Counted from the first letter of the stretch, positions 39,251 to 54,135 are shown. The stretch is 64,000 nt of DNA from Spirochaetales bacterium (GCA_016928955.1 JAFGJV010000029.1:1-64000); one strand, 5' to 3'. The notes: generated by a model from the letters alone, not told the origin. Made by a program: numbers and translations.

Positions 39251-39748
39251 ATGAACTACAGACTCATCAAAGCCGTCGCAGCCTCGGCCCTGTTGTTCGC
39301 CGCCTGCGTCGGTGCTCCCGAGCAGGGCGAACCGGCTGCCGACACGGCTACGGGCTCTTCCCTGGAGGCTCCCACCGTGACCGGAACCGTTGAAACCCGT
39401 GTCCTCCTCTCCGGGCAGAACGCCCGGACCGAGGAGGAATCAACCCTGGTCATCCGCAACCAGGATGCCTTTGTATCCCTGTGGATGAGCGTCGCTTCGT
39501 CGCCCACCCCCGAGGTGGACTTTGAGAACAACGCGGTGGTCGCCTCCTTCATGGGGCGCAGGAAAACCGGCGGATACTCAGTCAGCGTGCTCAGGGCCGA
39601 AACCCTGTCCGACGGCCGCGTGCGCGTCGTCCTTACAAACAACGCTCCCAAGCCCGGCATGATGGTTACCCAGGCCCTGACCAGCCCGTTTATCGTCCTG
39701 GCCGTCCCGGTCACCGGCTACGACGTCATCGTGGCCTTCGAGAACTGA
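39251..39748 (+). CDS. prcB: PrcB-family (protease complex subunit) lipoprotein
   Basis: Lipobox FAAC; PEVDF...FMGRRKTGGYSV...PKPGMMVTQALTSPF is the PrcB C-terminal pattern. Confidence 0.8.
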   Translation: MNYRLIKAVAASALLFAACVGAPEQGEPAADTATGSSLEAPTVTGTVETRVLLSGQNARTEEESTLVIRNQDAFVSLWMSVASSPTPEVDFENNAVVASFMGRRKTGGYSVSVLRAETLSDGRVRVVLTNNAPKPGMMVTQALTSPFIVLAVPVTGYDVIVAFEN

Positions 39749-39770
39749 ACCGAGGACCGCTCCCGCACGC

Positions 39771-39800
39771 TTGACCGCCCCGTCCCCGGGGCGGTACATT
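39771..39800 (+). promoter_or_regulatory. Putative ssrA promoter
   Basis: TTGACC-18 bp-TACATT. Confidence 0.55.
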
Positions 39801-39802
39801 TA

Positions 39803-39910
39803 GGGAAGCAATAATAACCCTATGGTTATTATTGTTTCCCAGCGTTTTCGGCTGAAAACGCTCGGTTTTCTAAGGTCACCCTCTAAAAACTGAAGGTTTT
39901 AGAGGCTACC
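39803..39910. repeat. Three consecutive palindromes in the ssrA leader
   Basis: Hairpins at 39803-39840, 39841-39862 and 39874-39910; the last shares CCTCTAAAAACTG..GGTTTTAGAGG with 60226-60250. Confidence 0.75.
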
Positions 39911-39922
39911 TTTTTATCCCTT

Positions 39923-40278
39923 GGGGGTGCCCCGGTTTCGACTGGCACGGTCCGGATCGTGGGTCGCAGGTGGAGTGCCGTACTCCTACTCAGCGGCAAA
40001 ACCTTAATTGCCAACGACAACGGCAATTTCGCCCTCGCTGCGTAAGCACCGATGACGACGGGCCCCATGGCGCGCTGTTCCGAGCGCCATGACGGCCTGC
40101 AACCCAACCGGGACTTGCCCCACGCCCAGCCCGCGGGACGTGGGGGACAACCAGCGGGATACGGAAGTGGCCGCGCGGCGGTTCGCCCTCCACTTCCCGA
40201 CAACCTTAAAAGCCGCCTAAACCTGTAGACGCCCTCGTTTCGCGTTTCAGGACGCGGGTTCGACTCCCGCCACCTCCA
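39923..40278 (+). ncRNA. ssrA: tmRNA
   Basis: 5' GGGGGTG...TTCGAC; 3' GCGGGTTCGACTCCCGCCACCTCCA tRNA-like end with G3:U pair; tag ORF 40010-40045 ANDNGNFALAA*. Confidence 0.97.
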
Positions 40279-40316
40279 AAAAACCGAGCGCCCCTGATTG
40301 GGGTGCTCGGTTTTTT
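40278..40316 (+). terminator. ssrA terminator
   Basis: aaaaaaccgagcgcccc-tgatt-ggggtgctcggtttttt. Confidence 0.85.
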
Positions 40317-40320
40317 ATCT

Positions 40321-40466
40321 GAGGTGGCGGGAGTCGAACGGGCGTGAGCGCCGAGCGAAGGCGAGGAAAAGCGGTCAAGGATGACCGCGTCAGCGAACGC
40401 CCCGGCCCGTAGCAAGGCGCCATGATGGCGCCGCCGCGGAGGGTCGACTCCCGCCACCTCCAAAAA
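40321..40466. repeat. Element bounded by inverted and direct copies of the tmRNA 3' end
   Basis: 40321-40339 is the reverse complement of 40258-40276; 40444-40466 is identical to 40260-40282. Confidence 0.9.
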
Positions 40467-40609
40467 CCGTGTTCGGGTAAAACAACGCTCCTTAACCGGT
40501 TTTGTAACCGAATTGTCGTTCGCCTTCCAGATTTCATTTGACAGCTGAAATTTTCAGCCGTACCACGGGCAAAGTTTTTATCCCTTAACCCTTCCCGAGG
40601 AGGAAAAAC

Positions 40610-42637
40610 GTGAAGAGAATGCCATCCATTCTCATCCTGGCCGTCGCCGCACTGGCGCTGGTCGGATGCCCTCAGCCAACAGATCCGGTCAAGGACATGA
40701 ATGCCAATCTCGGCACTCTAGCCGTGAATGCCGGACGCCTCTCGCCCGGCTTTGTCACCACCACTACCGTATACGATGTGGGCGTGCGCTACGACCAAGC
40801 CACCATTATCGTTACGGCCACGGCCGAGAGCAGCAAAGCTTCGATAGCCATAAACGGCCAGGCCGGTAGCGAGCTGGAGGTTGCCCTCGATACCGACCGC
40901 ACCATGGTATCAGTAGTCGTAACGGCGGAAGCCGGCAACACCTCTGGATACACGCTTTTCGTGGACAAGGCCGACAGCGAGCTTGTTCCCGTCTCGTTCC
41001 TGGTGGCCGAAAGCGTGGACGGAGCCACGGTAAGCGGTTCCACCCTTACGGCATATGATAGCCTTGGGGCTATCGTAGATACAACGACTGTTACCGGTGG
41101 TTCAGCTGTTGTGAACCTTGAACCGGATGCCTTATATACGTTCGAGGTTCAGCAAGCTGGGTACGCCGCCTCCTCTCTCCAGAACTACTATGTCAGCCCG
41201 CTCGGCGGCAATGATGTCACCATGATCCAGCAGAAGCTGGGCATGATCACGAGGCCCGCGACGGCCCCCCTATTCGATGATATTTCGCTTTCCAGGCTCG
41301 ATGATTTCACCGACGCCGCCACCTTGGTGGCCGGGCAACAGCTGAATACGGCCGGTACCACGTACATCCTCGTGGCGATCCTCTCCGATTCGGCCACGGA
41401 GGCCACGGCTTGGTCCGGTTTCGGCGTGAAGGCTGACTTCGACTACGCCCCAAGCTCCCTCAATGGCATGGACGCCATCATGCTCATGGATCCGTACTTT
41501 GACACTGATGCTGGGAAATACGTCAACCTATATCTTGTCGACCTGAGCGGCGGCGAATACCCGGCCGGTGAGCACGATTTGGTGCTGGTTGCCTACGATG
41601 TGGCCAACAACCGAGCCGAGACCCGCATCCCGGTAATCATGGAAGCCAATGGTTCTTCTGGAGCTGACGTATCCGAAGCGGTATTCTCCGATCTGCTTGC
41701 GGATCTTAGGGCTTACCCGGTCAGCCGCGGCTTCTTCAGCAAGGACCCGGGGAACTCCATCCAGGCCCTGGATCCCTATGAAGGTCATGACGTCTCCTAC
41801 CGCGCCCAGATCAGCTTCAAGCTGACAGACGGCGCTACCACGCCCGCCAACGTGGCCATCCGTGGCTTTGACCTCTACCGCAGAGAAGCTGGCCAGACGA
41901 GCTTCAAAAAGGTCGGCGCCACCATGTATGGCGCTCTTTCCACTGGCTCATCCGGCACCCACTCGATGTTCGACAGCGACAGCGGCCTAGAAGCCGGTGT
42001 TACCTACGAGTACATGATCGTGGCCTACACCGACGCTTCCCATACAGTAAAATCATCGGTGGCCACGTCCAAGGTCATGGCGCCCTTCTCGGCCAGCCTG
42101 GTTGGCCCAGCCAACCGGAGCACCGCCTCGTTCGGCGAGGACGGAAGCGGCTATCCCTATGGCCCGGAGTACTCCTTCTCCATCAGCGACACATCGCTGT
42201 GGAACGCGACCGAGTCCGATTTCTTCTACTTCGCCCTGACGGTCAACGAGAAGGCCGGTCCCTACGCCTACTACGGCAAGTTCCGCTTCAACTTCTCAAC
42301 CTCCAATTTCGAGGCGCTGAACGCGTATACCGGCAGCTGGCTCAATCTTGGATCGAGCGGAAGCATTTTCGACTACACCGGAGGAACCATCACCTTCCTT
42401 TACGGTGGATACGTGGCCTTCATCAACCAGACCAACTTGGTAAACGGCGCGCCCATCCAGTACACCGATGGCGCAGTCTACGAGTGGGACATCATAGGCG
42501 ACCTGTCCGGCGGCCATCCCGCTTGGTTCGAGAAAGCCTACACTGGCGGAATCGCCAAGTCCTACGCCGATGGGTATTCGGAAGGCGCCAATACCTCAAA
42601 TGGCCGCTTCGAAGTCGTGGCCGCGGTCGCCCCGTAA
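40610..42637 (+). CDS. prcA: PrcA-like lipoprotein with an N-terminal cadherin-like beta-sandwich
   Basis: Lipobox LVGC; LSPGF...YDVGV...VTAE cadherin-like segment; LVAYDVANNR; directly upstream of the subtilase; GGAGG RBS. The PrcA call rests on synteny and recalled similarity. Confidence 0.65.
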   Translation: MKRMPSILILAVAALALVGCPQPTDPVKDMNANLGTLAVNAGRLSPGFVTTTTVYDVGVRYDQATIIVTATAESSKASIAINGQAGSELEVALDTDRTMVSVVVTAEAGNTSGYTLFVDKADSELVPVSFLVAESVDGATVSGSTLTAYDSLGAIVDTTTVTGGSAVVNLEPDALYTFEVQQAGYAASSLQNYYVSPLGGNDVTMIQQKLGMITRPATAPLFDDISLSRLDDFTDAATLVAGQQLNTAGTTYILVAILSDSATEATAWSGFGVKADFDYAPSSLNGMDAIMLMDPYFDTDAGKYVNLYLVDLSGGEYPAGEHDLVLVAYDVANNRAETRIPVIMEANGSSGADVSEAVFSDLLADLRAYPVSRGFFSKDPGNSIQALDPYEGHDVSYRAQISFKLTDGATTPANVAIRGFDLYRREAGQTSFKKVGATMYGALSTGSSGTHSMFDSDSGLEAGVTYEYMIVAYTDASHTVKSSVATSKVMAPFSASLVGPANRSTASFGEDGSGYPYGPEYSFSISDTSLWNATESDFFYFALTVNEKAGPYAYYGKFRFNFSTSNFEALNAYTGSWLNLGSSGSIFDYTGGTITFLYGGYVAFINQTNLVNGAPIQYTDGAVYEWDIIGDLSGGHPAWFEKAYTGGIAKSYADGYSEGANTSNGRFEVVAAVAP

Positions 42638-42655
42638 GGAAAAGGAGCAAACAAG

Positions 42656-44896
42656 ATGAAGAAACTGCTAGTAATCCTGGCCGCCGCGCTCCTGCTGGGG
42701 AGCTGCGGTTTGCCCTTCCTGCAGGCCCCCGCCATGGGGCCCGCCGAGGAAGCCGGCCTCAACGTGGTCAAGGTGGCGCCCACCAAGGCCGCAGATCTCG
42801 AGCTCTACAACAACGAGTGGGTCAATTACGGCTACGTCATCGTCAAGACCGATGACGGTTTCGACGTGTCCCGCTTCGAGGCCCTCGGCGCCGAAGTGGC
42901 CGGCTCGTTCACGCTGCGGAACGCTCCTGGCACCTACTGGCGCCTCTACAAAACCACGGGCGTTGCCCAGCTCATCAGCCGCTTGCGCTACCAGCGTGGC
43001 GTGGCCTACGCGGAGCCCGAACTTGTTTCCAAGCGCGTTCTTCCGGTAGTTGAAAATGCAAGCGCCCGGTCCCTGACCAGCGGCGACCTTGCGGACGACC
43101 CGCGCGCCCAGTCCAGCGAATACTCGCTGGCCATCACCCAGGCCCTGGATTCCTACAAAGCCGTTGCCGACGGCGGCAATGGCTACGGGACCAACGAGGT
43201 GTACGTCGGCGTCATCGACACCGGCATCAACATGGCCCATGAAGACTTCTGGTACGACGACGACGAGAACCCGACCACCCAGGACGTGTCCATCGTCGAG
43301 TACGCCAAGAGCGCCTTCATAAAGGCCGCCGACGGCACCATGACCTGGGTCGGCGATGGCGTCGACCACGTGACCGTGCCCAGCGGCGAGAACTGGGATG
43401 ACCAGGCCCACGGCACCCACGTCTCCGGCACCATAGCCGCACGCGGCGACAACGGCGTCGGCGTGGCAGGCGTGGCGTGGAAGAACGTCAAGCTGATCTC
43501 CTACAAGTGCTTCGCCGACGCGGACAGCGGTTCCGGCTCGGACTGGTCCGTGTATTACGGCCTGGCCGACCTAGCCGACTGGAAGGTGGCCAACGGCGTA
43601 ACCCAGGCGACCATACCCGTGAACATGTCGCTCGGCGGCTCTTACGCGGGCTCCTTCGAGCTCGAGATGATCAACTACGCTCTGACCCGGGGCGTCCTTC
43701 CCATCGTGGCTATGGGCAACGACGGCATGCGCATGGGCCAGTTCCCCGCCTCGTACCAGGGCGTCGTGGCCGTAGGCGCCACCAACGGCAAGGACGAGAA
43801 GGTCCACTTCTCCAACACCGGCCACTGGATCAGCGTGTCCGCCCCCGGCTACGATATCATCAGCACGGGCAACGGCAGCGCGTACTGGAACGGCGACCCC
43901 TGGGGCAATGTCGTCCGCCAGACCGAGTACCAGTGGATGAGCGGCACGTCCATGGCCACGCCTTTCGTCACCGGCATGGTCGGGTACCTCCTCTCCTTCG
44001 ACCCGACGCTGACCCCCTACCAGGTCAAGCGCGTGCTCGAGCTGACCGCCGACGATCTCGGCGCGGCCGGCTTTGACGAGGACTTCGGCTACGGCCGCGT
44101 CAACGTCCTGGATGCCGCCACCATGGTGAGGACGGGGACCGGTTTACCCGCAGACAATTCCCACTACCTGAACACCAAGATCGTGGCCACGGTTGAGAAT
44201 ATCAGCGCTGCCTACGACTCGGGGATCGCCGAATTCCAGAAACGCATAGTCGGCGCCACGGTCAGCTTGTACGACTCGCTCGGCCAATTCATCGCCCTGG
44301 GCATGACCAACGGCACTGACGGCTCGGTGGAATTCCGGGGACTCACTGCCGGAACCTACACACTCAAGGTCAACTACGAGGGAGAGCTCCAGTCCCAAAT
44401 CGTGACCCTGGACGGCACCGCTGACCAGACCGCGGCCTTCAGCTACGACAAAACCATACTCTTCGTCTGCACCGTGCCGAACCTGGCTTACAATGCCGGC
44501 GAGGACGCTACCGACACCATGCTCACCCTATACGAGTACAATCCCGCCGGCGGAACGGAGGAAGAAAAGTACATCTACGTCACGGACGTGGATCAGGATT
44601 ACCTGGACACCCTGTCGGCAGAGGTGGTGAGCGGCAAGACCTACTTTGTGGAGATCGCGCCCTACAACCAGCGCGGCGGCAACTACGCCATCCAGATTGG
44701 TTTCTCGCCCATCACCGAGGCCAACGCGGTCGATGGCGCTCGCCTTTCCTCGGACAATGACAGCCATGAGGCCGACGGCACCTACGCGGAGGCTTTAGAT
44801 AAGGGAGAGTTCGATCTCGGCACGCCTTTTGGCGCGAACCTGGTTGGCGGAAGCGCATCAACCGACGTGGACATCTTCATGTTCACTGTTCCCTGA
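42656..44896 (+). CDS. prtP: S8 subtilisin-like lipoprotein protease (dentilisin PrtP-like)
   Basis: Lipobox LGSC; triad VIDTG, HGTHVSG, SGTSMATP; propeptide GYVIVKT...YWRL and DTGINMAHEDF...YAKS recall Treponema PrtP. Confidence 0.82.
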   Translation: MKKLLVILAAALLLGSCGLPFLQAPAMGPAEEAGLNVVKVAPTKAADLELYNNEWVNYGYVIVKTDDGFDVSRFEALGAEVAGSFTLRNAPGTYWRLYKTTGVAQLISRLRYQRGVAYAEPELVSKRVLPVVENASARSLTSGDLADDPRAQSSEYSLAITQALDSYKAVADGGNGYGTNEVYVGVIDTGINMAHEDFWYDDDENPTTQDVSIVEYAKSAFIKAADGTMTWVGDGVDHVTVPSGENWDDQAHGTHVSGTIAARGDNGVGVAGVAWKNVKLISYKCFADADSGSGSDWSVYYGLADLADWKVANGVTQATIPVNMSLGGSYAGSFELEMINYALTRGVLPIVAMGNDGMRMGQFPASYQGVVAVGATNGKDEKVHFSNTGHWISVSAPGYDIISTGNGSAYWNGDPWGNVVRQTEYQWMSGTSMATPFVTGMVGYLLSFDPTLTPYQVKRVLELTADDLGAAGFDEDFGYGRVNVLDAATMVRTGTGLPADNSHYLNTKIVATVENISAAYDSGIAEFQKRIVGATVSLYDSLGQFIALGMTNGTDGSVEFRGLTAGTYTLKVNYEGELQSQIVTLDGTADQTAAFSYDKTILFVCTVPNLAYNAGEDATDTMLTLYEYNPAGGTEEEKYIYVTDVDQDYLDTLSAEVVSGKTYFVEIAPYNQRGGNYAIQIGFSPITEANAVDGARLSSDNDSHEADGTYAEALDKGEFDLGTPFGANLVGGSASTDVDIFMFTVP

Positions 44897-44921
44897 TAGC
44901 GCCCACGTCCAAAGCTTTCCT

Positions 44922-44948
44922 GGCGGCCCCTTTGGGGGCCGCCTTTTT
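44922..44948 (+). terminator. Terminator after the protease gene
   Basis: ggcggcccc-tttg-ggggccgcc followed by T5. Confidence 0.8.
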
Positions 44949-44979
44949 GTATCTGGCTTCAGTTTGCCGTGAAGGGCAT

Positions 44980-45099
44980 AAAAAAACCGTCCGCGCGGGA
45001 GCACGGACGGCCGGGGGGAATCCCTTAAGGAGGTTCAACCCTCGATCCTGGAAGGAGGCTGGCATCGTCTTCCTCCCCCGCCAGGAAGGACGCCGGCCC
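44980..45099 (-). ncRNA. Candidate small RNA (~120 nt)
   Basis: Upstream TTGACA-17-TACCCT (45106-45134), structured body, 10-bp terminator stem plus U7. Confidence 0.5.
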
Positions 45100-45175
45100 A
45101 GGTTCAGGGTACGACGGCATCCCTATTCTGTCAACAGAAACATGCAAGCGGTTTCGCCGCAAGACGGGCGATAGC

Positions 45176-45334
45176 TCAGCCGCCCTGTTTTCTCCCGCCG
45201 AGCTTGTCGGCCAGCCAGATGATCAGGAAGAACACGGTCAGGGTGGCGAACACGCCTATGAGGCCGCCGGCGCTGACGAACAGGGCTTGCATGGTATCCC
45301 CCGCGCCGCGCGCGGAATCAATCAGGTTTTCCAT
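45176..45334 (-). CDS. OadG-like small single-TM decarboxylase subunit (52 aa, absent from the ORF track)
   Basis: MENLIDSARGAGDTMQALFVSAGGLIGVFATLTVFFLIIWLADKLGGRKQGG; AAGGA RBS; follows the beta subunit. Confidence 0.75.
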   Translation of the reverse strand: MENLIDSARGAGDTMQALFVSAGGLIGVFATLTVFFLIIWLADKLGGRKQGG

Positions 45335-45346
45335 CGTCGTTTCCTT

Positions 45347-46474
45347 TCATCCTACCAGGAGCGGCACCAGGGCCAGGACCATGCCGCCGGCTATGATCGA
45401 GCCCAGCTGGCCGGACACGTTGGCGCCCATGGCGTGCATCAGGATGATGTTGCCCCGCTCCTCCTCCGCGGCCATCTTCTGGACCACGCGGCCGGACATG
45501 GGGAACGCTGATATGCCGCAGGCACCGATCATTGGATTGACCTTGCGGCCGGCGGGCAGGAAGAGGTTGATCAGCTTGGCAAAGAGCACCCCGCCCGCGG
45601 TGTCGAAGACAAAGGCCACAAGGCCCATGCCCAGGATGAGGAGCGTGGTGCCGTTCAGAAAGTCGGCGGCCTTCATGCTTGAGCCTATGGCTATGCCCAG
45701 GAGCAGGGTGACCAGGTTGGCTAGCTCGTTCTGGGCCGCCTTGGACAGGCGCTCGAGCACGCCGGACTCACGGATCAGGTTCCCGAACATAAGGGATCCC
45801 ACAAGCGGCACGGATATGGGCGCCACGATGCCGGCTATCATGGTAACCGCTATGGGGAACATCACGCGCAGCCATTTGGGCACGCCCGACTCGTGGTAGG
45901 TCATGTGGATGGTGCGTTCCTTGCGCGTGGTGAGGAGTCGTATCACCGGCGGCTGGATGAGGGGCACCAGGGCCATGTATGAATAGGCGGCCACCGATAT
46001 GGGTCCCAGGTAGGTTCTGGCAAACTTGTTGGCCACGTATATGGCCGTTGGCCCGTCTGCCGCGCCTATGATGCCTATGCTGGCGGCCAGCTTGAGGTCG
46101 TCAAAGAAGAAGGTGGCCAGGATCATGGTGGCAAAGATGCCAAACTGCGCCGCCGCCCCGAAGAAAATCATAAACGGGTTCTTGAACAGCGGCCCGAAGT
46201 CTATCATCGCCCCCACCGCTATGAAAATCAGGATGGGAAAGAGCTCGTTGGCGATGCCGCCCTCGTACAGTATCTGAAGGAAGCCAGCGTGCCCGTCATG
46301 CGACCAGGCCACGGCCAGCGGCAGGTTGACCAAGATGGCCCCAAAGCCTATGGGCAGGAGCAGCATGGGCTCGTATTCCTTCACGATGGCCAGGACGATC
46401 AGGGTGATGCCCACGGCGTACATGACCGCTTCCTGCCAGCCTATGGACGTGAAGCCTATGAATAGTTCGTTCAT
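45347..46474 (-). CDS. oadB: Na+-translocating decarboxylase beta subunit
   Basis: YEPMLLLPIGFG, IGIIGAADGPT, AAYSYMALVP, HAMGANVSGQLGS. Confidence 0.94.
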   Translation of the reverse strand: MNELFIGFTSIGWQEAVMYAVGITLIVLAIVKEYEPMLLLPIGFGAILVNLPLAVAWSHDGHAGFLQILYEGGIANELFPILIFIAVGAMIDFGPLFKNPFMIFFGAAAQFGIFATMILATFFFDDLKLAASIGIIGAADGPTAIYVANKFARTYLGPISVAAYSYMALVPLIQPPVIRLLTTRKERTIHMTYHESGVPKWLRVMFPIAVTMIAGIVAPISVPLVGSLMFGNLIRESGVLERLSKAAQNELANLVTLLLGIAIGSSMKAADFLNGTTLLILGMGLVAFVFDTAGGVLFAKLINLFLPAGRKVNPMIGACGISAFPMSGRVVQKMAAEEERGNIILMHAMGANVSGQLGSIIAGGMVLALVPLLVG

Positions 46475-46548
46475 CGTTCCGCCTTTCCTGTGCGTGTACG
46501 TTCCAGTGTAGCGTCCCGGGCTGTGCCTGGACAAGGCGGGCCTGGCCC

Positions 46549-46576
46549 TCAATCCCAAGCCGCGCCACGCCGACAA
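46549..46576 (+). promoter_or_regulatory. sigma28-type promoter
   Basis: TCAA-16 bp-GCCGACAA. Confidence 0.6.
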
Positions 46577-46642
46577 TGGAGGTAGGGCGGCGATACAGGC
46601 CGCCCCGGCTTACACCGCTAGGGCCTAAGCCAAGGAGGAACC

Positions 46643-46837
46643 ATGAAGATGTTTTCCATTAAGAGCGCGGTCGGCGCGTCCTCCCTCCTGGAACTCGTGG
46701 ACGAGGTCGAGGACGGCTTTATCGTGCGCATCGTGCGGCACCGCGACGACTGGGACGACGTGAGCGAGGAATTCATGACGCGCGAGCTGTTCGACACCTG
46801 CGTGCGCACGGGCTACATAGCCGAGCTCAGCGCCTAG
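46643..46837 (+). CDS. Small hypothetical protein (64 aa)
   Basis: AAGGAGG RBS, host-like codon usage, terminator hairpin at about 46880-46915. Confidence 0.8.
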   Translation: MKMFSIKSAVGASSLLELVDEVEDGFIVRIVRHRDDWDDVSEEFMTRELFDTCVRTGYIAELSA

Positions 46838-46960
46838 CGCCCGTCCACGTATCCGGACACATTAAAATAGTGAGACCCGGCGGCCGCCCTTTTCTGGGGA
46901 CGGCCGCTGTTTTTTAAAAGCCGTGCCGGATGCCGTATCGGTACGTCGCATTCGGCCGGC

Positions 46961-47752
46961 TCAGTAATCCTTGCGCTTCATGATCCGTAACGCCAGAGCT
47001 GCCACGCCTGTCGACCACACGATCTGGTATAGGAAATAGGGCACGCCCATGCGGAAGATAAAGGCCGGTATCCTTTGCGCCAACTCGGGGTTGTCAATTT
47101 TGATAATGGCGCCGTTCGTCGGGAGGACGAACATCAACGGCCCCCGGACTATGGAGGGTAAGCGCGCCCTTACGTACAGGAACGGCACTTCCCCCATATT
47201 CACGACATCGCCGGCCACAAAGGCCGCCAGGCACAGCGCAAGGCCCGACCATCCGTACATGAGGGTGCTTGCAATCAAGCCGACCGACAGATAGGCCAAC
47301 GACTGGGACGTGTAGCCCACCATAAACTCGATCATATTTCGCGCGCTACCGGGCACCTTGAAAATCACATTGAACAACCATACGTTGACAAAGACCAAGG
47401 CAAGAAAACCCAGGAGAGCCGTTAGGGCGACGCGCAGGTGGTTCCAGAACACCGTGCCCTTACGCTCCACATGCGCCAACTCGACGTAGAAATGGCCGCC
47501 GGGCAGTTCCGGCCCCACAAGCCGGACGCCCAGATACATGGAAAACAGCGGCAGGACGATTCTGGCCACCTTTTCAATGGCCGACCAGAACGTGACCGCC
47601 TTCCGGTAGTCGGACATCCGGAGGTTCATGGCCTCGGGCACTCCGGAGCCGAAGAACGAAAGATTGAGGACGACAAGGCCACCGATTATGAAACCAAGGA
47701 AAACCGGATCGTTGACGAGCCGCCGTAGGCGGTAGCTCAAGTTCGGCGTCAT
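46961..47752 (-). CDS. ABC-2 type transporter permease
   Basis: About six hydrophobic segments; start overlaps the ATPase stop. Confidence 0.75.
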   Translation of the reverse strand: MTPNLSYRLRRLVNDPVFLGFIIGGLVVLNLSFFGSGVPEAMNLRMSDYRKAVTFWSAIEKVARIVLPLFSMYLGVRLVGPELPGGHFYVELAHVERKGTVFWNHLRVALTALLGFLALVFVNVWLFNVIFKVPGSARNMIEFMVGYTSQSLAYLSVGLIASTLMYGWSGLALCLAAFVAGDVVNMGEVPFLYVRARLPSIVRGPLMFVLPTNGAIIKIDNPELAQRIPAFIFRMGVPYFLYQIVWSTGVAALALRIMKRKDY

Positions 47753-48603
47753 GGCCGCACCCCCCTCTCACCCAGTCCGGCATGGTACCAGTCCTCAAGA
47801 TCCGCCGTCGCATAATCGACGTCTGCCAGCCTGTAAGCCCCATCGAGCCTGACCTCGGGTCCGCCCAGCTTCAGGCACTCCAATTTCTCAGTTTCTGAAC
47901 CGCCGCGTCGCTCCAGCGTCACGGTGGCGTTTCGGCTCGCGCGCTTGTAGTCGCCCACGACTATCTCATTGGATACGACCCCGTCCTTGAGCAGTCCCGC
48001 TTTGTGGCATACGCGCTCCAGATCCGTAAGGATGTGGGAGGTCATAAGCACGGCACTGCCGGCTTCCAGTTTGGCCTTGACCATATCCAGGGCTACCCTG
48101 CGCGCGACCGGGTCCAGGTCGGACGTGGGTTCATCCAGTATGATCAGTTCCGGGCTGCCGAGAAAGGCCTGGATCAATCCGGCCTTCTTCCTCATCCCCT
48201 TGGAAAACGTCGATATGCGCGCCTTCAGGGCGCCCTCGATTCCAAGTTCTCCGGCCATGCGCGTGTATTCGGTTTTGGCCGCTCCTGCAGCCAAGCCTTT
48301 CAGTTCGGCCATGGCGTCCAGGTACTCACTGAGCGCCAGGTTCCTTGGCGGGGCCAGCACCTCGGGCAGGTAGGAAAGTCCCCGCCGTTTCTTGAGCTGG
48401 CCCAGATGCATGCCGGCAAAGCGCACGCTGCCGGAATCCACAGTGATTGATCCGATAATGGCCTTGATGGTGGTGGACTTGCCCGCCCCATTGGGACCGA
48501 TGAGCGCATACGCCTTGGCCGGCCCTATTTCAAGCGACAAGCCTTTGAGCACGGGCGATCTTCGGTCATAGGCCTTCCTGAGCGTGTCGATGACCAGGCT
48601 CAT
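47749..48603 (-). CDS. ABC transporter ATP-binding protein (export/resistance type)
   Basis: GPNGAGKST, FSKGMRKK, LILDEPTSDLDP, TSHIL. Confidence 0.95.
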   Translation of the reverse strand: MSLVIDTLRKAYDRRSPVLKGLSLEIGPAKAYALIGPNGAGKSTTIKAIIGSITVDSGSVRFAGMHLGQLKKRRGLSYLPEVLAPPRNLALSEYLDAMAELKGLAAGAAKTEYTRMAGELGIEGALKARISTFSKGMRKKAGLIQAFLGSPELIILDEPTSDLDPVARRVALDMVKAKLEAGSAVLMTSHILTDLERVCHKAGLLKDGVVSNEIVVGDYKRASRNATVTLERRGGSETEKLECLKLGGPEVRLDGAYRLADVDYATADLEDWYHAGLGERGVRP

Positions 48604-49772
48604 GGATTTTGCGCCTCAAGCAGGCCGGGAACATCTTCAAGCTTGCAGGGCGGCAGGATCTCCGGAGGCGAGTTTAATGCCGTGAACATGCGCCGGCCCT
48701 CATTCTCCACAATAAGCATGGGCTGAATGATGAGGCAGGTGTTGGTAAAATCCGCTTCAGGGTCATAATACAGCGGATACGCTCTCTCCAGCGCCATAGC
48801 CCCAGTACTCAAGCCGCTTGGCGCGCAGTCGGCCATGCCGAGGGGCTTGAATTCCGGCGGCGGCATCGAGCCGACCCTGGGGGTATGCTGGTACTCCGGG
48901 AAGTGCCGGCCTTCGTCGGCGCGCAAAGCATTGACTTTTCCATAAAACAAGCTTAGGGGATCATCGTCGGCGGGGCCACGCTCTTTACGAAATTCCTCCA
49001 GCTCCGGACTCGTGAGTATCCTCCCGTCATTGAGAGAGATAGGCGACATCCAGTCCACGTATACGCCTGGTATCCCCATGTCCGCGTCCACGACTCGTTT
49101 CTCGGCGTCGGTCTCGGGGTCAAATGCTATACCGAACATGAAGCCATAGAGCAGACGGCCACCAGGATAGTCCCCCTGATGGAACCTACCCTCAGGCAAG
49201 ACCAAGTCGCCCATAGCAGGATCTACGAATGTCTGTATGGTGTACATGTCAAGGTCGTTCCTAACATACCTGAACCGTATCGAACCAATGGGATAGTCTT
49301 CCGTAACTCCATCTATAAAGCTTACCCTGATGCTGTCTGCCACCAAACCGTCATAAGTTGGATCCAGTTCAAAGCTATAGGTGAGAACCCTGTACACCAA
49401 ACCGCTTGTATCATTTGGGATCCAATTGGTCAGAGCGTTGGCGGCGATATCGTCAGCGTAATCTCCATCACGCTCAAATGCCGTGCGGGTCAGGGGAATG
49501 GTCCTTCTGCTTGACGATTCAACGAACTCGGCCGCGTTTATGTTCGAGTACTGGGAAAATTCTGTGATGCCGGGCGAGTCGAGCAGATAGAGAGAAATTT
49601 CTTCGTTTGAGGGAGTTGCCCCGGACCAATACGTGCCGACATGCCTGAAAAAAGCCTGCCTGGCGTGGCCCAGCTCGGTACGCGCGGCCTCCCCGCCACG
49701 GGAGGTGAAAACCAGAATGATGGCTGCCACTAAAACGATCACAGCTAGCAAGGAAAGCGCTAAACGTTTCAT
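48600..49772 (-). CDS. Hypothetical N-terminally anchored extracytoplasmic protein (390 aa)
   Basis: MKRLALSLLAVIVLVAAIILVF anchor; GGAGGG RBS; stop overlaps the ATPase start. Confidence 0.75.
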   Translation of the reverse strand: MKRLALSLLAVIVLVAAIILVFTSRGGEAARTELGHARQAFFRHVGTYWSGATPSNEEISLYLLDSPGITEFSQYSNINAAEFVESSSRRTIPLTRTAFERDGDYADDIAANALTNWIPNDTSGLVYRVLTYSFELDPTYDGLVADSIRVSFIDGVTEDYPIGSIRFRYVRNDLDMYTIQTFVDPAMGDLVLPEGRFHQGDYPGGRLLYGFMFGIAFDPETDAEKRVVDADMGIPGVYVDWMSPISLNDGRILTSPELEEFRKERGPADDDPLSLFYGKVNALRADEGRHFPEYQHTPRVGSMPPPEFKPLGMADCAPSGLSTGAMALERAYPLYYDPEADFTNTCLIIQPMLIVENEGRRMFTALNSPPEILPPCKLEDVPGLLEAQNP

Positions 49773-49955
49773 ATCCCTCCAATCTAATGAATTGAGGTAG
49801 CTTGGGCGGCATGCGCCGCGCAGGCTCTCCAAGTCGATGCCATTTCCTACGCTAATTAGATCAAACCATGGGAAGAGAAGATGCCAACAGAGGCAAACCG
49901 AAGGTGTAGGGCAGCTGCCTCTCCTAGCTCACGCTGGATTGCGAGAGGGCATACA

Positions 49956-50423
49956 TCAGCTTCTGGTTATCCTTACATATTTTCCCCGAGTTCCAGATGC
50001 CGAACCGTTCTCGGTTTTAATCACCTTGGAAGATCCATCAGGAAATCTCTTCCAGGTTATCTTTATCACAGATCCGCTCCTGGTAGTCGAGCCCCAACGG
50101 ATATATCCACATTTTCCATTGCTAAAGGTAGCACTGACCGTAAGAGACTTTGTCACACTGCCTTCGCTCCTTAATTCTAAGCCTATCTCTCCAGCAATAA
50201 AACTAGCGCTTATGCTACCCGTCACGCTCAAAGTGGCCGTTCTTTCTTCTGTTTCCGAATATGTAACGCTCGTGCCGGGCAAAGTTTCAATATAGGCCTG
50301 ACCGCATTGCATGTTCGGACCATTACTATAGGATTTTGTTACCGCAGTGTCTGTCTCATATGCACCGGCCAGTCCTACAAAAAGCCCGACGATCAGCAGG
50401 GCCATTAAGCACTTTTTCCGCAT
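49956..50423 (-). CDS. Small secreted Ser/Thr-rich beta protein A (155 aa)
   Basis: AGGAGG RBS; Sec signal ending AGA; alternating amphipathic segment; two Cys in the mature part. Confidence 0.8.
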   Translation of the reverse strand: MRKKCLMALLIVGLFVGLAGAYETDTAVTKSYSNGPNMQCGQAYIETLPGTSVTYSETEERTATLSVTGSISASFIAGEIGLELRSEGSVTKSLTVSATFSNGKCGYIRWGSTTRSGSVIKITWKRFPDGSSKVIKTENGSASGTRGKYVRITRS

Positions 50424-50443
50424 ACTAAACCTCCTGGTTTGTT

Positions 50444-50914
50444 TCATTCAGTTTCTATAAAGACACCTTCGGTAGCCTCTATATCGCTCTGGGAAATGAC
50501 TGTATGTCTAACTGATCCATTTGGGTATCGTTTCCATTGTACATGCGTTACGACCAGTTGCACCACGCGGACGCCAGCCGTGACCCTTGCGGTTATGATG
50601 TTGGGATCATCAAAACTCAAGCGGATGGCGGATGAATACTCGCTCACTGTATTCACGGTAGTCTCCGGGGCTATGAGCTCATTCAGGAAAAACGGGACGG
50701 GGCCTCGCACTCTAAAATAAGCCGTTCTTTTGAAGGGGATAAGCACGGGTATCGGCGTCTGCTGATCCTTGTTTATGGTTTTGCTGATAAGAACCTGCCG
50801 ATACCGCTCGATCGAGTAGTCGTAGCCCTCATCGACTTCCAGCGACACGGCCTTGGGGAGGGCAAGGAACATGAACGCGCAGCACAGCGTATACATAAAT
50901 CGTTTTTCTTTCAT
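50444..50914 (-). CDS. Small secreted beta protein B (156 aa), apparent paralogue of A
   Basis: Sec-like signal ending AVS; shares RTA...V.G and WKR[FY]P[DN]GS with A. Confidence 0.78.
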   Translation of the reverse strand: MKEKRFMYTLCCAFMFLALPKAVSLEVDEGYDYSIERYRQVLISKTINKDQQTPIPVLIPFKRTAYFRVRGPVPFFLNELIAPETTVNTVSEYSSAIRLSFDDPNIITARVTAGVRVVQLVVTHVQWKRYPNGSVRHTVISQSDIEATEGVFIETE

Positions 50915-50944
50915 TATGCTCGTCCTGTATCAAACTTTTATCTT

Positions 50945-50973
50945 TCTATACCACCTGTAGCTCCTGATGTCAA
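50945..50973 (-). promoter_or_regulatory. Promoter of the island operon
   Basis: TTGACA-17 bp-TATAGA with a TGn extension. Confidence 0.65.
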
Positions 50974-51083
50974 GTTAGCTTTTTTTCGCGCCCTTGAACT
51001 CCCGCCTTATCACTCCTACCTTTTTGCCCGATTCCGTGCTATCGTGTTGGCTCACGCATTCTGGACAATCGGGAGGTGGCGTT

Positions 51084-52394
51084 ATGAGCGACGCGAAAGG
51101 CAGCTTCAAGCCATACCTTGGCTTGACCTTCCTCATCGGCTTTGGGTTCTTCACCATGGGCCTCATGGACATACTGTACGACAGCTATGTGCCCATCTTC
51201 CTGGGCTCGTACATCAAGGCCAACTGGCTGATCGGGGCCATCATGACCCTGGACAACGTGCTGGCCGTGTTCCTGATACCTTTCGTGTCGCTGTGGTCGG
51301 ACAACGCGCGGACCAAAATAGGCAGGCGCATGCCCTTCATCATCGTGCTCCTGCCGCTGTCGGCGGTGACCTTCTCCCTGATACCCTACGCGGCGCGCGA
51401 GTCGCTGGTGTCGCTCATACTGCTGGTGGGCGGGCTCAACCTGTTCAAGCAGTCGGTGCGCGGCCCCGTGGTCGCCCTGATGCCGGACACCATACCGGGC
51501 GAATTCCGCTCGGAGGCCAACGGCGTGATCAATACCATGGGCGCGCTCGGCGCTATCATCAGCACGGTGGGCTTGGCCAGGCTCATGGGCGTGGATGTGG
51601 TCCTGCCCTTCCTGGGGCGCACCAAGGACGCCCTGCCCTTCCCCATAGCCGGCCTGTGCGTGGTCCTGGCCACGCTCCTGGTATTCTTCTTCGTGCGCGA
51701 GCGCAACCGCGACGCGGCGGCCAAGGAGGAGCGCGTGCCCCTGGTGGCGTCGCTCAAGGCCATAGCGGGCGAGAAGGACAAGAGTGCGCTGTGGATACTC
51801 ATAGCCCTGTTCTTCTGGTTCTGGGGCTACCAGGGCATCCTGCCCTTCATAGCCAAGTTCAGCGTGGAGGTGCTGGGTACGAGCAACGCCAACGCCACCC
51901 TGCCCGCCTCGGCGGTGGCCATAGCCCAGCTGCTCTTTGCCATTCCGTCCGGCTACGTTGCGCACCGCATAGGCCGCAAGCGCGCGCTCCGGATATCGCT
52001 TCTGGCGCTGGTGGTCATCCTGCTGGTGGGCGGGTACCTGGCCAGCCCCCTGGCCGAGGCGCTGGGCTCGGGCGCCCGCTTCTACGCGCTCATGGGCATC
52101 ATGTTCCTGTACGGCATCTTCTGGATCACCATCATTACCAACTCGTTCCCCATGCTGTGGCAGATGGCGTCCTTCGGTACCATAGGCGTGTACACGGGCC
52201 TCTATTACACCTTCAGCCAGGCCGCGGCCATTACCGCGCCGTGGCTGACCGGCGCGCTGATAGATATCGTGGGCTACCCGGGCATCTTCGTGTTTGCCGC
52301 CCTGTGCATGGGCGTGGCCATGGCCGTGATGTCCCTGGTGCGCAAGGGCGAGCCGCACGACGATCCCAAGGGGCTGGAGGCGAGCGTCGCATGA
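51084..52394 (+). CDS. MFS transporter (sucrose/maltose-permease-like)
   Basis: About 12 TMs; WSDNARTKIGRRMPF, ALMPDTIP...RSEANG. Confidence 0.88.
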   Translation: MSDAKGSFKPYLGLTFLIGFGFFTMGLMDILYDSYVPIFLGSYIKANWLIGAIMTLDNVLAVFLIPFVSLWSDNARTKIGRRMPFIIVLLPLSAVTFSLIPYAARESLVSLILLVGGLNLFKQSVRGPVVALMPDTIPGEFRSEANGVINTMGALGAIISTVGLARLMGVDVVLPFLGRTKDALPFPIAGLCVVLATLLVFFFVRERNRDAAAKEERVPLVASLKAIAGEKDKSALWILIALFFWFWGYQGILPFIAKFSVEVLGTSNANATLPASAVAIAQLLFAIPSGYVAHRIGRKRALRISLLALVVILLVGGYLASPLAEALGSGARFYALMGIMFLYGIFWITIITNSFPMLWQMASFGTIGVYTGLYYTFSQAAAITAPWLTGALIDIVGYPGIFVFAALCMGVAMAVMSLVRKGEPHDDPKGLEASVA

Positions 52395-53266
52395 AATGGG
52401 CCCTGGTCCTGTCAGGCGGCGGGGCCCGGGGCCTTGCCCACATAGGGCTCCTTTCCGAGCTCGAGCGCAGGGGCGCGCCGAGGCCCGGCCTGGTGGCGGG
52501 CACGTCCATGGGCGCCATAGTCGGCGCCCTGTATGCCTGCGGCTGGGACGGCGAGCGCATGGAGCGCTACGCGCTCGGCTTTGACATAAAGCGCTACATG
52601 GAGAATCCTGCGTTCCGCCTGCCGGACTTTGCCCTGTCCAGGGTCCTGCAGGCCGGCACGGCCCTGGGCGTGCTGGCCATGAAGCGCGGCCTGGATTCGG
52701 GCGAGCGGGTCCTGGCCGAGCTTGAGCGCCTGTTCGAGGGGCGACGCTTTGAGGACCTGGACACGCCCTTTGCCTGCGTGGCCGTGGACCTGGTCAGCGG
52801 GCGGGAGCGCGTGTTCGACTCGGGGCCGCTGGCCCTGGCCGTGCGCGCCAGCATGTCCTTTCCCGGCGTGTTCGCCCCCGTTGCCATCGACGGCGGCCTC
52901 TACGCCGACGGAGGCATTGTTGACAATCTGCCCGTCCGCGCCGCCCTGGCCCGCGGGTACAAAAGGGTCCTGGCCTCCGACGTGTCGACCTTCCCGCCCC
53001 TGGAGCCCGAGCGCATGAAGAACGGCCTGTCCGTGCTCCTCCGTTGCTACGACGTGGCCTCCGAGAAGGCCCAGGGCAGGCCCCAGGACCAGGCCAGCCT
53101 CTACCTGCCCATCGAGGGGCCGGTGCCGATATTCGGTTTTGACCAGGCCGCCGACGCCCTGGCCATGGGCAGAAAGGCCGTGTCGGACGCAGCGCCGCGC
53201 CTGGACAGATTCTTCCGGCCGGGGCCTTTCCGTGGGCACCCCTTCCTGCGTACCTTGTTCCGATGA
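52391..53266 (+). CDS. Patatin-like phospholipase
   Basis: LSGGGARG, GTSMG, DGG. Confidence 0.92.
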   Translation: MKWALVLSGGGARGLAHIGLLSELERRGAPRPGLVAGTSMGAIVGALYACGWDGERMERYALGFDIKRYMENPAFRLPDFALSRVLQAGTALGVLAMKRGLDSGERVLAELERLFEGRRFEDLDTPFACVAVDLVSGRERVFDSGPLALAVRASMSFPGVFAPVAIDGGLYADGGIVDNLPVRAALARGYKRVLASDVSTFPPLEPERMKNGLSVLLRCYDVASEKAQGRPQDQASLYLPIEGPVPIFGFDQAADALAMGRKAVSDAAPRLDRFFRPGPFRGHPFLRTLFR

Positions 53267-54135
53267 AACGATTCACGGACGCCCTGGACACCCTGATTCG
53301 CTCGTACGAAGCGTCGGGTGGCGTCAACCACCGGGGCGGCAGCAACCTGCCGTCCAAGGAAGCCGTGCACTCCATCGTCGCCGGCCTGGAAACCCTGGCC
53401 TTTCCCGGTTACCGGCGCGAGGACCAGATAGACGACGCGAGCCTGCCCCACGTGATAGGCCAGCTGGCCCACCGGTTGGCCGGGGAGCTCATTCGGGAAA
53501 CGGCCCGGAGCCTTGAGTACGCGTACCGCCACGCCGGGCGCTCAGGCTGCCCGGCCGCCTGCCTGATGGAAGCCAAGGACATAGTGGACAGCCTGTTCGA
53601 GTCCCTGCCGGCCATACGCGCCACGCTGATGACCGACGTGCAGGCCTGCTTTGACGGTGACCCCGCGGCCAAGTCCGTGGAAGAGGTGATCCTGTCCTAC
53701 CCGGGCCTTGAGGCGGTGGCTGTGCACCGTTTTGCCAATTTCCTGTGGAAGCGCTCCGTGCCCCTGATCCCGCGCATGATGAGCGAATACGTGCACTCGC
53801 GCACCGGCATAGACATCCACCCGGGCGCTGCCATAGGCGAGCGTTTCTTCATAGACCACGGCACCGGGGTGGTCATAGGCGAGACCACGGTGATAGGCCG
53901 CAACGTCAAGGTGTACCAGGGCGTTACCCTGGGCGCCCTGAGCGTGCGCAAGGCGTCGGCGGATGTGAAGCGCCACCCGACCATAGGCGACGACGTGACC
54001 ATCTACTCCGGGGCCACCATCCTTGGCGGCGACACGGTCATAGGCTCGGGCAGCGTGATTGGCGGCAACGTGTGGCTGACGGAATCGGTGCCCGAGGGCT
54101 CCAGGGTGTACCTGCCCCAGGCATCAGGCGCCTGA
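53263..54135 (+). CDS. cysE: Serine O-acetyltransferase
   Basis: GDPAAKS, TGIDIHPGA, FIDHGTGVVIGET, KRHPTIG. Confidence 0.92.
   Translation: MKRFTDALDTLIRSYEASGGVNHRGGSNLPSKEAVHSIVAGLETLAFPGYRREDQIDDASLPHVIGQLAHRLAGELIRETARSLEYAYRHAGRSGCPAACLMEAKDIVDSLFESLPAIRATLMTDVQACFDGDPAAKSVEEVILSYPGLEAVAVHRFANFLWKRSVPLIPRMMSEYVHSRTGIDIHPGAAIGERFFIDHGTGVVIGETTVIGRNVKVYQGVTLGALSVRKASADVKRHPTIGDDVTIYSGATILGGDTVIGSGSVIGGNVWLTESVPEGSRVYLPQASGA

Follow-up and report, generated by a model that had tools for sequence, protein, structure and literature searches.

The window analyzed here, a stretch of 64,000 nucleotides (nt) from a Spirochaetales bacterium (GCA_016928955.1 JAFGJV010000029.1:1-64000), contains a minus-strand island of five genes (46961-50973, from open reading frame (ORF) calling) that encode two small secreted proteins, named A and B here, and a trio made up of a membrane-anchored periplasmic protein (Anch), an ATP-binding cassette (ABC) ATPase and a permease. 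The host is a free-living spirochaete. We find three copies of the trio in this genome and, in a related strain, a homologue of A and B, gene C, next to a second trio; both the triplication and the linkage to C are new to this analysis. Comparison of these cassettes supports the view that the small secreted proteins and the trio are functionally tied; the module forms a coherent unit that is repeated and varies from strain to strain. The parts of the island are as follows, in the order in which they would be transcribed.

50945..50973, minus strand: promoter-like site (TTGACA, 17 nt, TATAGA), about 30 nt 5' of the ATG of B, from reading of the sequence

50444..50914, minus strand: B, a precursor of 156 amino acids (aa); ORF with a Sec-type signal; member of a four-sequence orphan family

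49956..50423, minus strand: A, a 155-aa precursor; ATG behind AGGAGG, a strong ribosome-binding site (RBS); Sec-type signal

49773..49955, minus strand: gap of 183 nt between A and Anch, covered by a terminator scan and RNA folding

48600..49772, minus strand: Anch, 390 aa, bitopic; ATG behind GGAGG; N-terminal transmembrane (TM) helix

47749..48603, minus strand: ABC ATPase, 284 aa; PF00005; ABC-2 / ABCA / NosF / DrrA class; translationally coupled to Anch

46961..47752, minus strand: permease, 263 aa, multi-pass by hydropathy; translationally coupled to the ATPase

The repeated trio and its small secreted partners

The two additional trios lie on contigs C43 (84-2823) and C51 (1064-4220), and all three copies have a GC content of 0.50-0.59. 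Relative to the window copy, the C43 and C51 versions are 57% and 52% identical in the ATPase, 42% and 36% in the permease, and 34% and 26% in Anch. In L009, a metagenome contig from a related strain, the C51 and C43 sequences are joined start to start (95.7% and 98% identity), so both extra trios stand in tandem, in the order trio, gene for a 223-aa lipoprotein, trio. This lipoprotein shows no relation to either the A/B profile or the Anch profile. When the small proteins are included, the cassettes diverge along a gradient, with identities of 52-57% for the ATPase, 36-42% for the permease, 26-34% for Anch and 24-30% for the small proteins, as one would expect from co-evolution of the exposed parts.

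A second metagenome contig, L010, matches C51 with 98% identity across the trio and carries gene C about 90 nt 5' of the C51-type Anch gene. The mature product of gene C, 131 aa long, adds a third member to the A/B family: it shares 30% identity with A over 87 aa (E 2e-6), and its similarity to B alone is not significant. Adjacency of a small protein and a trio is therefore found in two cassettes whose Anch proteins are just 26-28% identical. The genome to which the window belongs (G000) has lost both partners from the second cassette. A block of about 440 bp spanning the body of gene C is deleted, and the Anch gene has an in-frame TAG where L010 has GAG, which removes the C-terminal motif YPxYYxPxxDFTNT. 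Among contigs of four public DNA sequencing runs compared with L010, the deletion form is present in X1 and X5 and the intact form in X2 and X6; the TAG is present in X1 only, with GAG in X2 and X6 and no cover at this site in X5. X1 may be the source of the genome and hence is not independent of it. RNA folding of the gap between C and Anch is no better than that of shuffled sequences.

Our main evidence that the small proteins and the trio work together is that the same adjacency recurs in two deeply diverged cassettes and that both partners decay together in G000. The link between the small proteins and the ABC trio, which had been proposed in a first-pass annotation of this DNA, is thus supported by a second cassette. 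The same annotation spoke of a two-component system, and here the picture is mixed: the island does encode two secreted proteins, but the paralogous cassette has one small gene, and A and B look duplicated.

The start of gene C has a feature of its own. At L010:124-146, ATG AAG AAA is followed by a run of 10 T, and the run differs in length between sources (10 in L010, 7 in X2, 8 in X6, and 8 in P0003 by our own reading), with none of these lengths in frame with the ATG. A run of 9 would give the signal peptide MKKFFFAAILSLTLYTVLA. The tract may be a site of slipped-strand phase variation; alternatively, gene C may be silent wherever it occurs.

The island and its proteins

The five ORFs lie where the first-pass annotation had placed them, and its 183-bp gap, its three overlapping downstream genes and its GC counts (27/60 at 50161-50220 and 43/60 at 51601-51660) are all exact. 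The overlaps, between Anch and the ATPase and between the ATPase and the permease, are 4 nt each (ATGA); the longest possible A ORF, of 163 aa, would overlap B by 4 nt as well. The GC content of the island is 0.548 and falls to about 0.475-0.476 in the A/B part, compared with 0.618 and 0.657 in the flanks and about 0.635-0.636 in the genome, where just 1.1% of 5646 1-kb windows are as low as the A/B kilobase. GC at third codon positions is 0.455 in A, 0.580 in B, 0.627 in Anch, 0.737 in the ATPase and 0.773 in the permease, against 0.84-0.90 in the flanking native genes. These values support a foreign-looking composition. At the borders of the island, we found no direct repeats, tRNA or mobility genes.

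The single promoter proposed for the island corresponds to a promoter-like site, TTGACA-17-TATAGA, but this site is off consensus: its -10 element lacks the T at position 6 and hence lies outside the consensus promoter scan, and promoter-like and terminator-like matches across the region are no commoner than in shuffled sequence. The scan detected no minus-strand terminator-like site in the gap between A and Anch, and the gap folds no better than shuffles (z-score +0.61). In metatranscriptome contigs from one study, the depth over the island is about that over its flanks; these contigs neither show the level of transcription nor exclude DNA. A family search found no peptidase or modification enzyme inside the island, in agreement with the earlier description, and the S8 subtilase lipoprotein gene nearby is 2 kb off on the other strand.

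As had been suggested, A and B both carry predicted Sec-type signal peptides. Each N-terminus has an n-region, a hydrophobic core and a cleavage motif of small residues (..LAGA/YETD in A and ..PKAVS/LEVD in B, with the slash at the cleavage site), and both lack a suitably positioned lipobox Cys. The mature part of A has 134 aa, of which 30% are Ser or Thr and 2 are Cys, and it contains several strands of alternating hydrophobic and polar residues, including three consecutive strands that strictly alternate hydrophobic residues with Ser/Thr. Mature B is about 132 aa long and beta-rich. The two share 24% identity over 94 aa (E 5e-5) and a common WKR[YF]P[ND]GS, and a 23-nt direct repeat with copies 485 nt apart marks the duplication. 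From these similarities, A and B look like a tandem duplicate that has diverged into weak paralogues.

The family is very small. A profile search of 5.8 billion clustered proteins yielded 648 candidates, only four of them at E<=1, namely A, B, C and a C-like sequence, P0005; a word search of 5.8 billion proteins with A returned A itself only, and a hidden Markov model search of the genome (25,344 six-frame ORFs) returned A and B only. The four members share 12 invariant alignment columns, and strand alternation is kept across all of them. Neither A nor B belongs to a family in Pfam (E<=1), NCBIfam, PADLOC or PHROGs, the small-protein profile matched nothing meaningful among PDB sequences, and it showed no relation to the Anch profile.

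Structure prediction, which the first-pass annotation had proposed as a check, was run on A. AlphaFold2 models of A alone and with a 4-row alignment reached predicted local distance difference test scores of 38.7 and 41.7; both are unusable, and these low-confidence models concur only in being all-beta with long strands. Foldseek found nothing in the PDB at E<=0.001 with the second model. Its weak top rows, for proteins in the pore state (membrane attack complex, gasdermin and pleurotolysin, with template modeling scores (TM-scores) of 0.14-0.35), reflect long hairpins in a poor model and were discarded as evidence. In the ESM Atlas, the top feature matches of A (0.93-0.95) are unnamed Bacillota and Actinomycetota clusters, with recognition below the bar of the tool, and a lead to DUF6060 (0.89) was dropped after it gave no match in the genome at E<=10 and none in Pfam. 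A complex prediction with residues 31-390 of Anch and 22-155 of A scored 0.00 and gave no verdict.

Anch has a single N-terminal TM helix followed by a periplasmic domain of about 360 aa. A juxtamembrane motif, GHxRQAFxxHV, is conserved, and the C-terminal motif disrupted by the TAG is common to all three Anch types. The protein has no family in Pfam (E<=1), NCBIfam, PADLOC or PHROGs, and nothing meaningful appeared among PDB sequences. Its ESM Atlas model (predicted TM-score 0.60) is nearest to three unnamed Bacillota clusters (TM-scores of 0.47-0.52 by query and 0.53-0.69 by target); the other neighbors are weak Ig-like or beta-sandwich rows. These neighbors, together with the low GC content, are a lead toward an origin of the cassette in low-GC Gram-positive bacteria.

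The ATPase matches PF00005 at 1.8e-23 and has a C-terminal extension of about 70 aa. Its best NCBIfam models are DrrA, GldA, lantibiotic-protection and NodI, all far below cut-off. Among PDB sequences, the matches are the second nucleotide-binding domains of ABCA3, ABCA4, ABCA7 and ABCA1 (1e-46 to 1e-41), NosF (5e-32) and LptB (1e-21). By homology, the ATPase is assigned to the ABC-2 (type V) class of DrrA, NosF and ABCA. The PADLOC defense models gave generic P-loop matches for the ATPase and none for the other four proteins. The closest other ATPases in the genome adjoin an ABC2_membrane_2 permease (contig C50, above cut-off) and a GldF-like permease (contig C1, E 7.3e-4, below cut-off). The latter contig holds a GldA/GldF/GldG-like set at G000:C1:148751-152001, with an ATPase that is among the closest to that of the island, a 240-aa ABC-2 permease and a 524-aa anchored protein.

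The permease of the window has no Pfam match and no PDB sequence match. It fits the ABC-2 type in size, in its multi-pass hydropathy and in being coupled to the ATPase, and its C43 paralogue has a faint ABC2_membrane_2 (PF12679) signal below cut-off (E 0.025-0.045). It is probably a very divergent ABC-2-type permease with six TM helices. Profile comparisons with the GldF/GldG-like proteins of the genome were not significant for either the permease (E 0.18) or Anch (E 0.19).

Known systems and candidate functions

The earlier statement that no named system with this make-up is recognized in spirochaetes stands, and none was matched in the family libraries. In the literature on spirochaete bacteriocins and ABC immunity and on Sec-dependent bacteriocins, the make-up of the island is not described among the matches listed. 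The pump of the island is unlike an exporter of Treponema denticola, which is said to be of the leader-cleaving type. That exporter is the sole spirochaete case among the matches listed (PMC4947327, available in excerpt).

Two bacteriocin systems had been put forward as analogies. In the lactococcin 972 cluster, lcn972 is found with orf2-orf3, a putative immunity ABC transporter (PMC4055356, in excerpt). As in the island, a gene for a Sec-type secreted protein is directly followed by genes for a membrane protein and an ABC ATPase, without a modification enzyme. The mature proteins of the island are twice as large, however, and its host has two membranes. Its permease is ABC-2-like, whereas that of lactococcin 972 is of the large 7-TM type. 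The Lactococcin_972 domain (PF09683) has no match anywhere in the genome at E<=10, and the ATPase scores 69.2 bits with L_ocin_972_ABC (TIGR03608), against a cut-off of 254.85, which ranks it 53rd among the 68 ABC ATPases of the genome. LanFEG with LanI/LanH provides self-protection against lantibiotics and, as described in the excerpts available, resembles the island in having an ABC-2-class ATPase, a 6-TM permease and a membrane-anchored or lipoprotein binder beside genes for secreted antimicrobials (PMC4828448, PMC4234265). The island differs in having one permease gene instead of two and 14-kDa Sec proteins instead of modified peptides. Its ATPase scores 112.5 bits with the lantibiotic-protection model TIGR03740 (cut-off 309.75), Anch does not match the LanI/LanH models, and neither the island nor its flanks contain lantibiotic precursor or modification families. 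Taken as claims of membership, both analogies fail on these scores and missing families.

Machines outside the bacteriocin field offer further parallels. The nos genes are ordered nosZ-D-F-Y-L, and the island shares with them the order of periplasmic partner, ATPase and permease, a client gene upstream and, in the tandem cassette, a lipoprotein gene after the permease. NosF, the ATPase of the copper-delivery machine NosDFY(L) (PMC8457098, in excerpt; PDB 7o0y and related), is also the best solved bacterial match of the island's ATPase. Membership in this system finds no support, as neither Anch nor the permease has a Pfam, NCBIfam or PDB sequence match. Anch lacks a NosD/beta-helix signature and is TM-anchored, the permease is not detectably NosY, and there is no nosZ-like client. 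PmtABCD exports phenol-soluble modulins (PSMs), which are short leaderless helices; it removes these amphipathic membrane-damaging products and protects the producer. The PmtA model matches the ATPase at 2.4e-22 with 79.6 bits, far below its cut-off of 350, and the products of the island are Sec-exported beta proteins, not PSM-type helices. GldAFG and LptB2FGC-LptA each combine an ABC ATPase and a permease with a membrane-anchored periplasmic accessory protein, and Lpt has a small Sec-exported all-beta partner in addition; the matches of the ATPase to the GldA and LptB models are all below cut-off. Of the known systems, an ABC-2 exporter that has an accessory protein comes closest to how the island would work.

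In a narrower form of the general idea of the first-pass annotation, we tentatively propose that A and B are membrane-active secreted proteins and the cognate partners of a self-protecting ABC-2 pump, the whole forming one functional module. Sec would deliver A and B into the periplasm, where the variable domain of Anch would recognize its own small protein. Anch would contact the permease through its conserved juxtamembrane motif, with the first periplasmic loop of the permease, also conserved, as the docking site. ATP hydrolysis could then drive the amphipathic proteins off the outer leaflet and pass them outward, and in this manner the pump would keep A and B out of the inner membrane of the producer. 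The self-protection and exporter pumps LanF, DrrA and PmtA are among the best NCBIfam matches of the ATPase. We also count in favor of this proposal the linkage and joint decay of small protein and trio, the divergence gradient between cassettes and the strand alternation of A, and that the cassettes are, judging by their composition and occurrence, foreign, narrowly spread and strain-variable. The label of bacteriocin is a reasonable hypothesis and not a finding.

Several points weigh against an antagonistic role. Searches of Pfam, NCBIfam, PADLOC, PHROGs and PDB sequences yielded no toxin or bacteriocin family for A or B, nor any similarity to immunity families. The pore formation suggested in the first-pass annotation gained no support either, as neither Pfam nor PDB sequences gave a match to a pore-former family (aerolysin/ETX-MTX2, aegerolysin, leukocidin, MACPF/CDC). 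Since both models of A are unusable, the term "membrane-active" is drawn from the sequence pattern, and a plain beta-sandwich would show the same. The recognized substrates of ABC-2 pumps are peptides, lipids and drugs, and no pump of this class is known to expel folded proteins of 14 kDa. Where a cell is double-membraned, a Sec signal takes a protein only as far as the periplasm, and in this two-membraned host the family search found no outer-membrane release route, lysis gene or regulator in the island. The C43 trio is preceded by the 223-aa lipoprotein gene and not by an A-like gene, and the apparent phase variation at the T-run of gene C is more typical of surface proteins than of bacteriocins. 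Finally, the TAG in Anch would be costly in a strain that coexists with carriers of C if Anch were needed for immunity. We consider it rather unlikely that the module is a wholly new form of antagonism, in which Sec-exported beta-sheet proteins would attack membranes, type-V ABC pumps would confer immunity by clearing the membrane, a new periplasmic adaptor fold would give specificity, and diversifying cassettes from low-GC Gram-positive bacteria would be switched off, deleted or kept by digester strains.

On account of the points just listed, a harmless role in the envelope is almost as likely as self-protected antagonism, if somewhat doubtful in its own right. A, B and C would then be periplasmic, outer-membrane or surface proteins, which a NosDFY- or Lpt-like trio would mature, load or pass on via Anch, the ABC motor performing mechanical work on this periplasmic partner. 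This agrees with the periplasmic end point of Sec export, with the ATPase matches to NosF and LptB and with a gene order that mirrors nosZ-D-F-Y-L down to the lipoprotein gene of the tandem cassette; the variation in the T-run of gene C and the presence or absence of genes between strains are typical of exposed surface proteins, and linkage and joint decay fit such a role as well as they fit a toxin. Anch, however, has no sequence relation to NosD, LptC or GldG, nor A and B to LptA or carriers, there is no obvious reason why envelope cargo should come in three diverged cassettes of foreign composition, and an essential or conserved role is unlikely given that relatives do without the module. 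It is improbable that the trio instead exports a small hydrophobic molecule such as a lipid, glycolipid or peptide, with A and B acting as its carriers or binders in the periplasm or outside the cell, like LolA, LptA and MlaC. Pumps of the ABC-2/ABCA class, to which the PDB matches point, are generally known to move mostly lipids and amphipathic small molecules, and A and B are small, secreted and, in a low-confidence model, all-beta; none of the three cassettes contains or adjoins a biosynthetic gene, though, and no carrier family was matched in Pfam.

Two further explanations would remove the link itself. That A and B are unrelated to the trio and landed by chance in the same variable spot could account for the 183-nt gap before Anch, for the steps in GC that set A and B below the trio and for the C43 trio without an A-like gene, but we judge it quite improbable in the face of the same adjacency in a second, deeply diverged cassette, the decay of both partners together, and the co-orientation of the genes with no terminator between them. 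It is very improbable that A and B are not real genes. They are orphans without a family and their models are of low confidence, but both have an RBS and a signal peptide, they are related to each other and to two sequences of other assemblies, all four sharing 12 invariant columns, and the region is present in sequencing runs from 9 studies.

For four of the five proteins there is neither a family nor a solved relative, and even very large sequence collections contain almost no relatives of them; the module nevertheless exists as three diverged copies and shows polymorphism between strains that share digesters and sediments. Should the small proteins prove antagonistic, the module would be the first spirochaete system of protein bacteriocin and ABC immunity and a new mode of ABC-2 self-protection. 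If they are envelope cargo, it would be the second case, after NosDFY, of a type-V ABC motor that acts on a periplasmic protein partner. If they are neither, the island is an ordinary strain-specific one.

Distribution and genomic setting

The scarcity of relatives was assessed with word-seeded searches and sampled genomes. Neither A nor the permease was found in any of 60 relatives. Among 400 sampled genomes of the phylum, the small-protein profile had no match and the permease profile had no credible one, its lone match scoring 20 bits and containing three stops. Across genomes representing one per species (185,579 species), the sole match of the permease profile, L008, is 100% identical to our own C43 and was set aside as not independent. 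Searches of plasmids (tblastn with Anch and A) and of viral contigs (Anch profile) returned none. The island itself was found in metagenomes from 9 studies, which sampled sludge, digesters, wastewater, sediment and freshwater.

In one relative (G005), a 64-aa ORF and a major facilitator superfamily (MFS) gene flank a galactokinase-like (GHMP-kinase-type) gene in place of the island. Because another gene is carried there, the spot is variable and its flanks are native. The 64-aa ORF, which borders the variable spot at 46643-46837 of the window on the plus strand, has no Pfam family and is 81% identical in G005. Contigs of four RNA-library runs were compared over 44000-54000 of the window; the listed base differences come to 2 for the 4-kb island, as against 11 for the left flank and 16 for the right. 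Diversity between strains may be lower in the island than in the native genes around it, perhaps through recent spread; with uneven cover, this is a hint only.

Beyond the island, at 51039-53266, spurious ORFs of 439-740 aa run over the MFS and patatin genes on both strands, an effect of the GC content of 65-70%, and such long spurious ORFs could mislead gene calling. Farther away on the other side, 39251-44896 holds a PrcB_C-domain gene (39251-39748), a transfer-messenger RNA (tmRNA) gene (39923-40278, tag ANDNGNFALAA) and a gene for a 675-aa cadherin-like protein (40610-42637), followed by that for the 746-aa S8 subtilase lipoprotein (42656-44896). The order of PrcB_C, cadherin-like and subtilase genes recalls that of the prcB-prcA-prtP dentilisin locus of oral treponemes, here in a free-living host and with the tmRNA gene inside.

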